From a virus: a stretch of DNA of 64,000 nucleotides. The stretch lies in IMG/VR virus record IMGVR_UViG_3300032516_000013, positions 1 to 64,000 of that record, one strand, 5' to 3'. Under the pieces are notes generated by a model, which saw only the letters and a program-made list of their open reading frames with translations, searched no databases and had not been told where the DNA came from. Below are positions 20,013-41,302 of the stretch, piece after piece. A program made the translations under genes and the position numbers. The first letter of the stretch is position 1; every line of letters starts with the position of its first letter.

Positions 20013-23000
20013 TTCTTCACCTTCTTCTTTGATTCCCAAGCTTCTTCAGGACCATAGGTAAGAACATAATCTAATTGATCAGAAGATTTAATTGTTCGAA
20101 GAATGGCTGTCTTTCCTCTAAGATCAACATAAATTTTTCGAACTTTGTGTTTTAAAGCTAAATTTATAAGAGAAGATTTTTGCTCTTTTGTTATTGGTTT
20201 TTCCCCTTCAATATTAAATTCAGAATCTATAATAGCTCCTCGAATCACCCCGTCTTCAAGCAGATTACCTGGACACACGCCGCCTACAATACGTAAGGTT
20301 TTATCGTGAGCGTAAATTACAGGAATTATGGTTCCATCTGTAAGAAGCCAAAATTTATACCACCTTTCGCCTGGGAAAGTGCTGGTTTTTAATTCTTTAG
20401 GTTCATCTTTGTAAAAACTTTTTACTTTTTGTTGAGATTTAGAAAGAGTTGCAACAGCTTCTTGAATAGATTCCTTCAAAAATTTCATATCCTTTATAAT
20501 ATTTGGAGAAGTATTATCTCCCCAATTCACCGATGCTTTTCCATCTTGAATCTTTTTAACAGCACAAACATCTCCTCTTCCATCTCCTTCAGTTGCCCAT
20601 TTCTTAAAATGTTTCATACAAAGCCAAGCACGTGCCCTTCCTTCAGCCCATAAACATTCAACTTCTGGCTTTGCTGAGCATTCCATGCATTTATCTCTTC
20701 TGTTCCTGGCTTCTTCTATTGATTCCTTTGCTTTCTTTTGATAGCTAGCCAAATTATCAAGAGTTTCTCTACCTCCTTCTATAAAGAATTTGGATAAATC
20801 CCCTCGTTGATGAACAACATTTAAAATTCTGTCAATAAATTGCAATTTCTCTTCTGGAGTTTCAGCTTCATAAAGAGATAAATTCAAAGGAGTTAATCCC
20901 TTCCAAGCATAATCGCTTAAAATATATTGTCCATCTTCATCAACAGACCAATCCAGAAACTGTTCTTCATCAATACCATTTTCTTTAAAAAACTCTGATG
21001 GATCATAAGAAGAATGTCCAGACAATTCAGTATTAACACCCAATCTCATAATAACATGATGTACTATATCAGCTAATTTATCAATGCCTTCTTCATCCCT
21101 AACAAATCCTAATTTAGCATAATCGTTCCATATTTTAATAACTCTTGCTGCTGGCATCACTGGCCAAGAATATGGATATTGAGTTTCTCCTTCTTCTCTA
21201 TCCAAAAAACTATTTACAATATAATATTCTTCTTCATTTTTTATTTCCCCCAAGGCCTGCATTGTTTCTTCACTAGCAAGATCACTAGTTTCTTGAATGG
21301 ATTCCTTTGCTTTCCTCTTTCCTAAAGCCTTGCCTAAACCAGCATATTTACCTGCTCTCTTAGCAGCCTTATCTTCTTCTCTCTTAATTACTTCCTCATA
21401 ATTCTTCTTCAGCCAATTTGCCATTGTACTTTTGTACCATGGCAAAGTCTTAAATAATGCCTGTATATGTTTACAAAATGCTCCATATTGTTTAGGATTT
21501 CGAATATCTGGAGATCTATTTTCTGGTTCGCCATATTTGGCTCGATATTTGTCCTGACTACGAATATAATGACCACCGTAGTAGAGATCTGCGGGGCAAT
21601 TATGTACGAAAATTCCAGCTGCTAAAGCAAAATTCTGATAATTTTCTACAGACAAATCATAAACGGGAATAGCTTCTTCCAAATCAATAAAATTGACAGA
21701 AACAACTCTATGATTATAAAATCTTCCTGTCTTTGAATCCCTTAAAACAGTTTCTTTCCTTATTTTTGCAATTCGCCTTCCTTGAGCTTTCCTCGCTTCC
21801 GGATGTGCTGCCCACCAAGATTTTTTCCTCTCACTTCGAGATTTACATTCTTCCTCAGAAGTTGCTCCTTGCATAGAGGCTACTATTTTTTCTCGATTTT
21901 CTAACCACTGTTTATTTGATCTTTCGGACAACCGTTTCTGACCCTCTTTGGAACGCATAAAATTAATTCCAGCAACAATAAAATTCGTCACCATTTCTGG
22001 ATGCTTTTCTTTGCATATTTTACTAGCTTTCCGATTTGACTCCCTCATTTTTTCTGACCATTCTGGATCTTCCCAAGCTCTTAAAATAGCTGCTGTTGCG
22101 TTTTGATGGTTTTTAGCGTGTAATTCCCAATGTTCTTGTATTTCCAACCACTGTAGATTTTCAGGGCAATCATTAAGAGAATTCATATTTTTATGATGAA
22201 CTACTAAAACTTTATCTTCTCCACCAACTTCTATTAATTTATCATTGTATTCTTTCTTCAACAAACTTTCTGCCACAACTCTATAAATTGTTTTCCAAAT
22301 GGGCCTTCCATCAGAACCTCTTCTCGAATTTAATACAACCTTATTATACCTTTGAGAAAATCTACTATTTGGTTCCGTTTGCTTAATATAACATGGCATC
22401 AAAGAATCCCCAGCAATTAATTGCTCTGCCTGTCTATAAGAACCATCTCTCATTCTAAATGGGTGCTCCGGCGTACATTTAACTTTTTCATCATTATCTA
22501 AAACAACTTCTACTAATTGATTGACATCTTTAGTTTTACCCAAACAAGTTGCTTTTGCAGGAACCAAATCCCCGTTCTCATCAGAAGCATAAACCCAAAA
22601 TGGTTTTTCTGTGCCGAACTCAGAAAGAATTTCTTCTATGGTCAAAATCCTACCATCTAACAAATAAATTTTCGTGTCGCCTGTCAAACATTCACATAAT
22701 AATTCAACATCCAACTTCTTGAACAATTGAGCAGCTGCTTTTTTCAAATCAACTTTAGTTTTAGCTTTGTTCCAATTCCTTCTATCTGCTACTACTCTTT
22801 GAACTTCTGGAACAACATTCTTCCAACGTAAAGTTACCTCATACCATTTGCCTTCTTCTGATCCACTATGAACTTTGAAGCTCCAGGTATCCTTTCCCAT
22901 ATCTGTCATTCGGAGACCGCCCTTTGCAATAATCCCTGGAACTTTGACAGAATTTGAAAAGAAGTCAGGAAATCGCATAGTGATGGATTTCTGCTTATTA

Positions 23001-38932: not shown

Positions 38933-41302
38933 TCATCTCCCTAAAGACTTCTCCCAGTAAGCACCATCTTTAGTTTCTTCTGCTCTTTTGAAACCCATTT
39001 TCTCTAACATAGATTGGGATGCTATATTAAAAGATTCTACATATCCTCTTGCCTTAGTGACCCCATATTTTTCAATAGCATATTTTATTCCAAACTCCAA
39101 TAATTCTGGACCATACCCGCTACCTTTTATCCGAGCATCTAATCTAGTCAAATATACTAATTTATCTTTACTATTTATGTCGAGGGTGGCTTCTACTACT
39201 AAATCATCACTTATATCAAGCCAAGTTTTGGTTTCTTTATTTAGCCGTCCATCAAAAAAAATTCTGACCTTCTTATCCGTAATTGTGATATCTAATCGTC
39301 TGGTTTTATATTCTCTCTTGTCTTCCTGAGTCTCTTCTCCAATTATATATTCAAATAGTTCTTCTTTAACTTTCTTGGTCTCTTTTGATTCTCTGATTTC
39401 TAATTTGGAACCACACTTTGGACAAGTCATAGTTTTAAGAACTTCTGGCTTTGTTTCCTTTACAGTTTTTCTATAACTACGCCAAGGACATTCCTTGCTC
39501 GTACAAACTAACTCAGTCCAATCTCTCCAATATCCTCTAGCTTCTACAGCTTTTGTAATTTTGGATTTATGCATTACTCTTTTATCAAAACCAGCATTAC
39601 CAAGTTCATCCAAATCATAATATGTCTTACCTTCATCAGTTGAGAAGCAAGTAGGACATCTCTTAGATTGCCAATCAGGTTTATGATCCGGAGATCTCGC
39701 ATCATTAACATCCATCCACTCTTCTGGATTATCTGTAAGTTCTGTTAAAGGTTTATACTCTGCCAATTTGTTAAATATGGAAGTTGTTAATCCCGCGGAG
39801 AATCCGGAATGTCCTTGATCAGCAAACTTCTGGATAAGATCCATTACTGCTTCACCAATCATTCCATCGTAGTCAGAATCTTTATCAAATAGTCCTGCTA
39901 ATTGAAGTTCCTTCTTTGCAAAGTCAGTTAGAGATTCATTTATTGATTCCCAAGCTTCTGCTTCTTTTTTACCATAACCATAAGTAAGAATATATTCTAA
40001 TTGATCTATATTTTTTATACTTATTGGAGAACTACTATCAAAGTCTTCTCTATCTAGATCTAGAAACATCTTTTCAATTCCTGAACCATATTCTTTATAC
40101 AGACGAAGAAAAGATTCTATTTGTTTCTGTGTAGGTTTGTTATTTCCTCCAGTTATCCCTATTTCTTTTGCATGCGGGGAAAAGTAACCAGCTATTGCTC
40201 CAGCAAAGTACATATCACTTGGAGCAATATCAATTTTGTTAATAGTAACCAAATAAGCATAGAAAACTGGAATAACTGTTCCATCAGTAAGTAACCAAAA
40301 CTTTAGTTCTCCTCTTTCTTTACCTGAGTAAGTACATGGAACTAACTTTTGACTTTTTCCTTTATAATAGTTCTTTAGCTTTGTTTGAACTTTACCAAGT
40401 GGTAAGAATGCTTCTTGAATGGATTCCCCCATCTTCTTATATTTAGCAATATAGCTCTTTGTCTCTTCAGGAAGTTTAGATCCACCAACACCATTATTCC
40501 CCTTTAGATTACCAACACCCCAATTATAGGCAGCTAATCGATTCTCAAGATTATCCTCAAGATTATAATGCTTTAATAATCGAGGGATTTCTATGTTTAA
40601 ATAATAAGAACCAACCTTCCTATTCTTGTTGGAATCGAATGCTTCTTCCCAAGACCATTGGACATTCATCTTGCGAGTCATCTCTTCCCAAGTAGGTTTT
40701 GTTATCTGAAGAAGACCTCTTGCTCCAGATCTTTTGTTCTCGGCCTTTGGATTATTTGAAGATTCGATTGATGCTATTTTAGATATGTTGATTTGAGGAG
40801 AAGCTTTTGGAGATACAATAGTAAACTTAGGAGTTACTTCTTGTCGAGAAGGGGCAGAGATAGTAGGTGGTTCGCTTTTGTCTTTAGGAACGCTTGTCTG
40901 CATACCTCCTAGGCCTATCAAACTGGCTGCTGCAGTTGTAACTAATGTTTTGCCTAGACCTTCCTCTAATTTGTTTACTCTATCTCTAAATTCTTCCCAA
41001 TGACCAGTAGAACTATAAGATTCAAAATATTCTATATCCCCATCAGGATGAATCCAACCACCTTTATAAGATAATTGTTCATTCAATAATTCATTCTTCT
41101 TCGCCTGGATCTTCATTACAACATTACGAAATGCTTCTGAACTTTCCTTGCACATATCATCAGAAGTGTCAATATTATCTAAGATTTGATAGAGAGCCTT
41201 AGCAACTTGCTCCCAGGTCATATCCTTGCTCTCTTTAAGAGAAATGAGTTTACCTAGAATCATTTGATCTGTGAAAAAAGAATTGGCTTCGATAAAATCC
41301 AT
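38933..41302 (-). CDS. Polyprotein: lytic transglycosylase (SLT) + KFWLLTDG module + unknown module + Zn ribbon + GNAT acetyltransferase
   Basis: SLT motifs IESS, GARGLLQI, LAAYNWG, P.ET..Y. GNAT motifs KGSGYG and N.AS..MLEKMGF. Linkers ESIQE, ESINE, ESKE. Confidence 0.8.
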   Translation of the reverse strand: MDFIEANSFFTDQMILGKLISLKESKDMTWEQVAKALYQILDNIDTSDDMCKESSEAFRNVVMKIQAKKNELLNEQLSYKGGWIHPDGDIEYFESYSSTGHWEEFRDRVNKLEEGLGKTLVTTAAASLIGLGGMQTSVPKDKSEPPTISAPSRQEVTPKFTIVSPKASPQINISKIASIESSNNPKAENKRSGARGLLQITKPTWEEMTRKMNVQWSWEEAFDSNKNRKVGSYYLNIEIPRLLKHYNLEDNLENRLAAYNWGVGNLKGNNGVGGSKLPEETKSYIAKYKKMGESIQEAFLPLGKVQTKLKNYYKGKSQKLVPCTYSGKERGELKFWLLTDGTVIPVFYAYLVTINKIDIAPSDMYFAGAIAGYFSPHAKEIGITGGNNKPTQKQIESFLRLYKEYGSGIEKMFLDLDREDFDSSSPISIKNIDQLEYILTYGYGKKEAEAWESINESLTDFAKKELQLAGLFDKDSDYDGMIGEAVMDLIQKFADQGHSGFSAGLTTSIFNKLAEYKPLTELTDNPEEWMDVNDARSPDHKPDWQSKRCPTCFSTDEGKTYYDLDELGNAGFDKRVMHKSKITKAVEARGYWRDWTELVCTSKECPWRSYRKTVKETKPEVLKTMTCPKCGSKLEIRESKETKKVKEELFEYIIGEETQEDKREYKTRRLDITITDKKVRIFFDGRLNKETKTWLDISDDLVVEATLDINSKDKLVYLTRLDARIKGSGYGPELLEFGIKYAIEKYGVTKARGYVESFNIASQSMLEKMGFKRAEETKDGAYWEKSLGR

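Follow-up and report, generated by a model that had tools for sequence, protein, structure and literature searches.

A recurrent module in head-region polyproteins of an uncultivated phage with T4-type head machinery

Phage proteins packed in the capsid act before phage gene expression, and they form a first line against bacterial immunity. To our knowledge, few such proteins have been described outside T4, P1 and phiKZ-like phages. In the accessible text of a review (PMC9026906), the T4 internal proteins carry leaders of 10-19 residues that target them to the core and are removed by the protease gp21. Its cuts fall after L/I-x-E, and an Asp instead of the Glu at P1, the last residue before the cut, inhibits processing in T4; the propeptides have 7 to 65 residues, and the review suggests that leader targeting lets T4-like phages pack varied proteins. 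According to the part of PMC10052503 available, gp245 of SPN3US cuts after A-x-E, with Ser favoured at P1', the residue that follows the cut. Here we analyse positions 1 to 64,000 of the IMG/VR virus record IMGVR_UViG_3300032516_000013 (the window, 64,000 nucleotides), which covers the first 64 kb of a viral contig of 90,332 bases with a completeness estimate of 58%. Two polyproteins encoded in its head region carry the same module. We propose that this module is probably a protease-released, capsid-packaged internal protein, carried in the head polyproteins of an uncultivated clade of myoviruses with T4-type head machinery.

One module in two unrelated polyproteins

The two proteins are P0001, with 1010 residues (positions 20009-23041), and P0002, with 789 residues (38933-41302), both delimited from open reading frames (ORFs), Pfam matches and BLAST segments, and P0002 also from PHROG matches. 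The long ORFs of the window, which has a guanine-cytosine content of 36%, are all on the minus strand, and every coordinate below refers to that strand unless we say otherwise. Both module stretches code on the minus strand only, and their plus-strand translations are full of stops. By BLASTP, residues 849-1004 of P0001 align to residues 285-453 of P0002 with 66/171 columns identical (39%), 84.7 bits and E 1e-20, which rules out a chance or low-complexity match. The next best high-scoring segment pair (HSP) between the two proteins has E 1.7, and their remaining segments are without significant similarity. The alignment ends at A-W-E-S in both proteins on the C-terminal side, and on the N-terminal side it overruns the motif E-S-I-Q-E-A by 8 weakly matching residues. 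The initial annotation had described a shared module between unrelated flanks, with a linker motif at each end, and that description holds: the homology is significant and it stays within the linkers. Its positions for the two stretches were right but 1-2 nucleotides off frame; in frame, they are E857-S1004 (20030-20473) and E293-S453 (39944-40426). Inside the linkers, the module proper is A862-E1003 in P0001 (20033-20458, with a profile match of 253 bits), a copy that keeps the nearly invariant His of the family, and A298-E452 in P0002 (39947-40411), where a two-domain model has predicted local distance difference test (pLDDT) values >90 across the domain. The contig carries only these two copies. 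In a tree of 63 near-full copies, those scoring at least 40 bits amongst 125 domain hits, forcing the two window copies together costs 0.76 log-likelihood units (approximately unbiased test, p-AU 0.485), a result compatible with duplication as well as with separate acquisition of the copies.

A profile built from the two window copies and searched against 1.84 billion representative proteins finds 78 proteins at E<=1e-3 (53 at E<=1e-10 and 12 at E<=1e-30). Many of them have different neighbours next to the module, so the search for other contexts that the initial annotation called for does find them. A local re-scan gives the 125 module domain hits, spread over 77 proteins that have as many as six copies in tandem. 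The weakest profile matches (P0068, P0077 and P0080) consist of many short stretches, and at least one is apparently a WD40-repeat protein. In the 63 near-full copies, two Gly and one Gln are invariant (Gln in 63/63) and a His is present in 62/63. Also strongly conserved are K-F-W-L-L-x-D-G-x-x-I-P-V and, at the C-terminal end, L-x-Y-x-L-x-Y-G. The AlphaFold2 model of the module, from a 36-row alignment, has pLDDT 92.1 and a predicted template modelling score of 0.87, and it displays an alpha/beta fold with three beta-hairpins and four main helices. By this model, some 145 residues form an autonomous alpha/beta domain, which represents a previously unannotated family.

For the module queries P0003 and P0004 there are 0 Pfam families at E<=0.1, and 27 family members have no shared Pfam family at E<=1 and no PHROG at E<=0.01. 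By tblastn against 50,697 GenBank phage records, we find nothing for P0003 and P0032 (E<=0.01) or for P0004 (E<=0.1). A word-indexed protein search retrieves only P0005 and P0006 amongst longer proteins (708 candidates) and none amongst proteins of similar length (25 candidates), and a first scan of viral contigs with the two-sequence alignment gave 32 stretches, 0 of them confirmed. The novelty of the family rests on such database scans, the literature not having been searched for the motif of the module. For the predicted fold, Foldseek reports no match in the PDB at E<=1e-3. The best match of a wide VIA-align search has Z 4.9, with a root-mean-square deviation of 3.0 over 73 residues, which is under the stated background of the tool (Z 7-8); the known folds compared with the module are gelsolin/ADF-H-like and half of a metallo-beta-lactamase. 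The best BFVD match (E 3.1e-3) is to uncharacterised phage proteins, the best ESM Atlas score (0.79) is below the lead level of the tool, and the module profile against PDB sequences reaches a best E of 0.55. Ten members that we looked up all come from metagenome assemblies; 9/10 of their clusters are singletons, and their names are uninformative (one is "hypothetical protein"). A sister domain with the motif G-W-I-H-P-N-G accompanies the module in P0008, P0032, P0033, P0039, P0047, P0052 and P0055, and weakly in P0002 residues 75-100. By hhalign, it matches the module with 94.6% probability and E 6.6e-8 over Trp...Asp/Asn-Gly, His, Gly-x-Ile-Arg and Thr-x-x-Gln, a result to take as a lead, the segments having been picked by motif. 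This similarity suggests that the two domains may belong to a wider superfamily.

The linkers also mark where relatives differ. When P0001 and P0002 are compared by BLAST to the family proteins and the locus ORFs, the ends of the HSPs cluster at the linkers, and the segments recur in different carriers. In P0001, the recurring segments are 1-118 and 481-~580 (the N-domain around an intein), 599-778, 773-~850 (Cys-rich) and 852-1007 (module). In P0002, they are 8-100, 112-300 (SLT), 284-456 (module), 442-581 (Tad3), 586-621 (Zn ribbon) and 635-787 (GNAT). Together with the occurrence of the module next to other neighbours, in other positions and in 1-6 copies, this clustering supports the proposal, made in the initial annotation, that the linker delimits an exchangeable cassette. 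The syntenic relatives are seven viral contigs (L003-L009) and two contigs from genome collections (L011, L012). The gene in the P0001 slot always starts with or contains a SWIM-like domain, and the position of the module varies: it is C-terminal in the window, internal in L004, and N-terminal twice plus C-terminal once in L007/L008. L005/L006 and L009 have a divergent module (weak matches of 15-17 bits) fused to the N-terminus of the next gene. The P0002-slot protein of L003 has three tandem modules in the first 456 of its 594 residues. The contigs L011 (179,096 bases) and L012 (15,243 bases) are filed in public archaeal metagenome-assembled genomes, one in an Asgard bin and one in a DPANN bin. 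An archaeal host seems less likely than mis-binning, given that SLT and Tad3 cassettes are indicative of bacterial hosts. With its 179 kb, L011 hints at the genome size of the clade.

Linkers, leaders and the prohead protease

P0001 includes three linkers. Linker 1, A-K-E-S-I-Q-E (21290-21310), and linker 2, A-K-E-S-I-E-E (20711-20731), are places where HSP ends cluster. Linker 3, L-K-E-S-I-Q-E (20459-20479), has two candidate scissile bonds, after E857 and E861, and the stretch M852-E861 around it reads like a 10-residue leader. In P0002, the linker on the N-terminal side of the module is M-G-E-S-I-Q-E (40412-40432), and the one on the C-terminal side is S-I-N-E (39935-39946), directly after A-W-E452. 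A six-frame scan of the window for ESI[QE]E gives 5 occurrences, 4 of them in the frames of P0001 and P0002 and 1 in a plus-strand frame at 55732.

The boundary is conserved in the family. The residue before the module (P1) is Glu in 61/63 near-full copies, the residue two before that Glu (P3) is V, L, I or M in 55/63, and the residues that follow (P1'-P4') are mostly A-V-A-T. In the window, the family-conserved Glu is the second Glu of E-S-I-Q-E, followed by A-V-A-T. In tandem arrays, the junction from one copy to the next is Y-G-T-L-D-E|A-V-A-T, where the bar marks the candidate cut. For Tad3, the cassette that follows the module in P0002, the match to the Pfam profile starts at profile position 2 directly after [IV]-x-E in 3/3 carriers scanned (P0002 S457, P0018 S387 and P0027 residue 512). 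The AlphaFold2 model of P0002 285-585 has four segments with pLDDT <50, of which two are the linkers (285-298 and 446-455), and the module between them is >90. The start of the Tad3 profile, the tandem junctions and the low-pLDDT linkers support cutting at the second Glu. Going by these patterns, the linkers are most likely cutting sites of an S77 prohead protease, with the rule hydrophobic-x-Glu then Ala/Ser. The window linkers present A-K-E|S twice and A-W-E|S twice, which resembles the A-x-E|S preference of gp245.

The window does include a T4-type head block, identified by Pfam and PHROG matches. It consists of a gp20-type portal (45645-48125; PF07230 Portal_T4, E 1.7e-19), a prohead protease (27230-29968) with an S77 (T4 gp21) domain at residues 40-142 (PF03420 Peptidase_S77, 40.7 bits against a cut-off of 27; phrog_207, E 3e-33), and a major capsid protein of the T4 gp23 family (25691-27199; PF07068 Gp23, E 1e-44), with a tail sheath further down (12861-14483; phrog_23, E 1e-85). 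Both polyproteins are inside this block, P0002 between the portal and capsid genes. The S77 prohead protease is the presumed enzyme that would cut the linkers. The major capsid protein has candidate maturation sites at I-L-E64|A and L-F-E75|A, near the expected propeptide position; T4 gp23 is cut after residue 65. It is only 25-29% identical to its best matches in cultured phages, which places the phage in an uncultivated clade.

The protease has a long C-terminal extension (~650 residues) rich in E-S-K-x-x-E linkers. This extension and an ORF of 1173 residues (29997-33518) are chains of small segments, Zn ribbons amongst them, joined by E-S-K-[MTVIL]-x-E. The more general motif E-S-([KQ]xx|[IV]x)-E occurs 17 times in the 73 minus-strand ORFs, and 16 of the occurrences are in P0001, P0002, the 1173-residue ORF (6) and the protease extension (5). 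The number of shuffles that reach the observed motif count is 0, 10, 0 and 0 of 2000 for P0001, P0002, the 1173-residue ORF and the protease, in a test that is partly circular, as the proteins in which the motif was counted are also those that served to define it.

The same kind of site appears at the start of the proteins. A match to [LIVM]xE is found in the first 25 residues of 65/71 Met-starting family proteins, compared to 30% of random 25-residue windows in the same proteins (the count is based on 76 family proteins after dropping the three weak matches, of which 71 start with Met). The commonest leader has the 7-residue form M-[FY]-x-x-L-[FVL]-E. P0001 has a 7-residue leader that ends in I-I-E7|A, and in P0002 the corresponding site is F-I-E5|A. 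By its sequence, part of the linker resembles the remnant of an N-terminal leader. The P0002 stop is immediately followed by a gene of 73 residues (38710-38931) with the leader M-F-E-E-L-F-E-H-I-I-K-E. By BLASTP, the body of this gene is 60% identical to P0005 633-699 (E 2e-20), and it is an internal segment also of P0021 and P0025, so that one phage has this cassette as a gene of its own and another has it within a fusion. P0002 also has a leader-like peptide at 647-657 just before its GNAT domain, as if a separate gene had once been fused in frame. The 73-residue gene with its own leader and the leader-like peptide inside P0002 suggest that cassettes may switch between separate gene and polyprotein part by gain or loss of a stop codon. 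The gene that follows P0001 (19116-20039) probably starts at an internal Met, with the leader M-N-Y-H-D-L-T-A-Y-I-Q-D, a leader type also present in P0024, P0035, P0036, P0038 and P0040.

Other cassettes and neighbouring genes

In P0001, the order is leader, SWIM-like N-domain with an intein, linker 1, a domain without assigned identity, linker 2, Cys-rich cassette, linker 3, module and a short basic tail. In P0002, it is leader and helical N-domain, hydrophobic segment and SLT, linker, module, linker, Tad3, Zn ribbon, leader-like segment and GNAT. The flank labels of the initial annotation fare unequally. SLT is right: the lytic transglycosylase domain is at P0002 173-269 (40496-40786; PF01464, E 4.2e-13; phrog_2013, phrog_669). 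GNAT (658-789; with the leader-like E-E-L-F-E-Y-I-I-G-E-E at 39332-39364, the unit spans 38936-39364) is supported by phrog_1249 (E 1.2e-5) and recurs in P0039, but its PF13302 match of 23.7 bits is under the Pfam cut-off of 25.4. The Cys-rich cassette, plain in the sequence, is at A778-F854 of P0001 (20480-20710), and it is also found at or near the N-terminus of P0006, P0042 and P0056 and internally in P0064. The SWIM label comes from the pattern C-x-C...C-x-H, visible in the P0001 N-domain with the intein removed; neither P0001 nor the intein-free P0005 has a SWIM match in Pfam at E<=0.1. The Zn-ribbon cassette of P0002, A588-E638 (39389-39541), comes after A-V-E587, and the same cassette follows the module in P0029 and P0012. 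In P0009, P0010, P0033, P0039 and P0041, all outside the window, modules are followed by a cassette that begins with V-P-E-Y-L-Y-H-G-T, which has weak, below-cut-off matches to the Tpt1/KptA RNA 2'-phosphotransferase (PF01885, E 0.003; phrog_5470, E 0.0018).

The intein of P0001, which the initial annotation does not mention, has 363 residues and an HNH endonuclease (residues 118-480, 21602-22690; PF14890, E 3.1e-16), and it splits the C-x-C of the SWIM-like N-domain. P0005, the P0001 orthologue in L012, is without the intein and aligns over the junction at 69-71% identity, and P0012 has an intein at the same place. A mini-intein of ~144 residues sits in the T4-type portal (47469-47900, residues 76-219, C76...N219 then C220; PF14890, E 2.9e-14). 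Two other peptidases are encoded amongst the head genes. One is a complete M42 glutamyl aminopeptidase (23043-24134; PF05343, E 4.9e-53), directly upstream of P0001 and 75% identical to its counterpart in the syntenic contig L012; a possible task for it would be to trim or recycle Glu/Ser-rich peptides set free as the head matures. The other is a trypsin-like serine protease with an N-terminal hydrophobic segment (37422-38318; PF13365, E 8.4e-18), which could be a second protease able to process head proteins.

The Tad3 cassette of P0002 is residues 457-563 (39614-39934). It matches PF25185 with E 2.8e-34 and 117.9 bits against a cut-off of 27, over profile positions 2-102 of 119, and it matches the PDB entry 9b7d_B, "Tad3", with E 3.4e-6. 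By sequence similarity, the cassette is a relative of the type I Thoeris inhibitor Tad3. In the portions of PMC13728456 and PMC13402655 available, Tad3 is reported to bind and inhibit ThsB. The companions of the module amongst 79 family proteins are Tad3 (5), DUF5662 (4), intein (4), SLT (2) and GNAT (2), and the module directly precedes Tad3 in P0002, P0018, P0028 and P0079.

Proposed mechanism, alternatives and comparison with known systems

In the mechanism that we propose, a short N-terminal leader would take the polyprotein into the assembling prohead, and the protease would cut it there into single cassettes. The freed module would stay in the capsid as an internal protein and enter the cell with the DNA. 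Cut sites would make the cassettes independent of each other, and fusion, splitting, reordering and tandem amplification could occur without functional loss. Such independence would explain the same module in two unrelated contexts.

Several points weigh against this reading. We infer cleavage, packaging, ejection and function. P3 is not hydrophobic at 8/63 boundaries. The linker holds two candidate bonds, K-E|S and I-Q-E|A, and both may be used. The other low-pLDDT segments of the P0002 model (230-236 and 298-301 in model numbering) are not linkers, and the model draws the C-side linker as the start of a helix. The S77 match is moderate, and the specificity of the enzyme could differ from that of T4. 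The partly circular motif count belongs here too, as does the fact that many "stand-alone" homologues are on contigs <2.5 kb and may be truncated. The P0002 copy has a Tyr (near residue 350, 40240-40260) where 62/63 family copies have the His, and this copy may be inactive or have a changed function. By structure and by sequence (Foldseek, VIA-align, BFVD, ESM Atlas and the PDB profile), the module has no relative of known activity. As to function, the isoelectric points of the copies spread from 4.4 to 9.4, with 30 acidic and 20 basic amongst the 63.

We weighed three other explanations. The polyproteins could remain uncut as intact "polyvalent" virion proteins, with E-S-I-Q-E as no more than a charged, flexible spacer at which domains can be inserted. 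There are known polyvalent proteins that contain lysozyme-type and GNAT domains, and the available part of PMC5512222 presents some as thought to act whole. The linkers are short and of low confidence in the model, as any spacer would be, and the cleavage that we propose is deduced. We nevertheless find this explanation quite unlikely. A spacer need not keep a Glu (61/63) with a hydrophobic residue two before it (55/63), nor put the native start of Tad3 directly behind that Glu. The same motif marks the N-terminal leaders, the phage has a protease of a Glu-specific type of family, and an SLT that acts on the cell wall is hard to combine in one uncut chain with Tad3 and GNAT, which belong in the cytoplasm. 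Nor is the linker likely to be a signal at the DNA level that drives cassette exchange while the encoded peptide has no function. The five linkers do share a 15-nt core, GAA TCN ATH NAA GAA, as a recombination signal would. Within it, codons vary at synonymous positions (TCC/TCA/TCT, ATT/ATA); such wobble differences indicate selection on the peptide, so the conservation is at the protein level, and we rejected the signal on this codon comparison. Moreover, homologous recombination would need more than fifteen degenerate bases, DNA identity between the two module copies is only 55%, and the amino-acid rule is kept in quite different sequences such as T-L-D-E|A and K-V-T-E|A. We regard a DNA signal as highly improbable.

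The third explanation accepts that the module is cut out and packaged, and gives it a structural role as core or scaffold filler, or as organiser of the packaged DNA or of the ejection channel. Tandem arrays of up to six imply many molecules per capsid, abundant structural internal proteins are present in T4 and phiKZ-like heads, and we found neither a catalytic motif nor a known fold. The spread of isoelectric points is unsuited to a common DNA-binding role, and we rejected a general role in DNA binding or DNA mimicry on the same spread. Syntenic relatives differ freely in copy number and position, which would be unusual for an essential structural part, and the invariant polar residues (His 62/63, Gln 63/63) and the recurrence beside Tad3 suggest a specific binding site. 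A structural role is a serious alternative, though one that seems unlikely to us. For the module as a packaged internal protein, the invariant polar residues, the tandem amplification, the variable charge and the company of SLT, GNAT and Tad3 favour a specific binder that is delivered early. We tentatively suggest one possible role: the module may bind a host factor or a small molecule stoichiometrically at an early stage, in the service of counter-defence or host take-over. That the module is a new class of pre-packaged counter-defence protein, for instance one that soaks up an immune signalling nucleotide or directly inhibits an immune sensor, is a more doubtful proposition.

The clade appears to link many capsid-packaged proteins in chains whose cut-site pattern is simple to read. 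If cleavage is confirmed, this pattern would offer a sequence-only route to list candidate injected effectors in uncultivated phages. On the more doubtful proposition, taken more broadly, the series leader, cassette, hydrophobic-x-Glu linker, cassette would be a general grammar, in which every segment between sites could be read as an injected effector, and the fused Tad3 would be a positive control for it. Confirmed cleavage would also suggest ready-made delivery of some immune inhibitors, and one cassette here belongs to a validated family of Thoeris inhibitors. Tandem arrays cut by the protease would raise the number of modules per capsid, all of them arriving ahead of phage gene expression. 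No other cassette of the set is reused as widely or amplified as much as the module, which has a confident fold, an invariant Gln and a near-invariant His and is a good first target.

Amongst known systems, no description was found in the literature that joins polyproteins, a prohead protease, internal head proteins and anti-defence. The parts of PMC13728456 and PMC13402655 available do not mention Tad3 inside a head polyprotein; Tad3 fusions might be reported in the original Tad3 paper or in supplements. The T4 internal proteins (IPI, IPII, IPIII and Alt) go with the same type of head machinery, that is, an S77 protease, a gp23-type capsid and a gp20-type portal. As here, they have short N-terminal leaders that end in hydrophobic-x-Glu. 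Their cargo, as here, varies widely and shows little conservation, and one of the T4 proteins is a counter-restriction protein, according to the accessible parts of PMC3012670 and PMC9026906. Unlike the polyproteins, they are separate genes with their own leaders; here, one chain has several unrelated cargo domains with candidate cut sites between them, and one domain is amplified in tandem. The T4 proteins have no sequence similarity to the module polyproteins.

In giant phages (phiKZ, SPN3US), the ejection or inner-body proteins are amongst the many head proteins cut by a diverged gp21-type protease (gp175 or gp245), after x-x-Glu and at multiple redundant sites, as far as the available text goes. 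Apart from its self-cleavage, the gp245 cuts described there remove N-terminal propeptides, whereas the sites here are between different cargo domains. Giant-phage ejection proteins have no sequence relation to the module polyproteins.

In its proposed working, the system is like the T4 internal proteins and the giant-phage ejection proteins. Closest in architecture to P0001 and P0002 are the polyvalent proteins of Iyer et al. (2017). In the accessible text of PMC5512222, these combine 2-15 unrelated conflict-related domains, have their genes amongst late or structural ones, and presumably reach the host together with the DNA. A peptidoglycan hydrolase and a RimI-like GNAT are described there as typical parts, and P0002 has SLT and GNAT. 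Polyvalent proteins, in that same text, are processed by an embedded zincin-like peptidase, whereas the prohead protease would do the cutting here, in trans and at a short motif that is repeated; no peptidase family is found in P0001 or P0002 (Pfam E<=0.1, PHROGs E<=0.01). The theme itself is known from the T4 internal proteins and the polyvalent proteins. What is novel is the new domain family and a chain of several cargoes with sites of the prohead-protease type.

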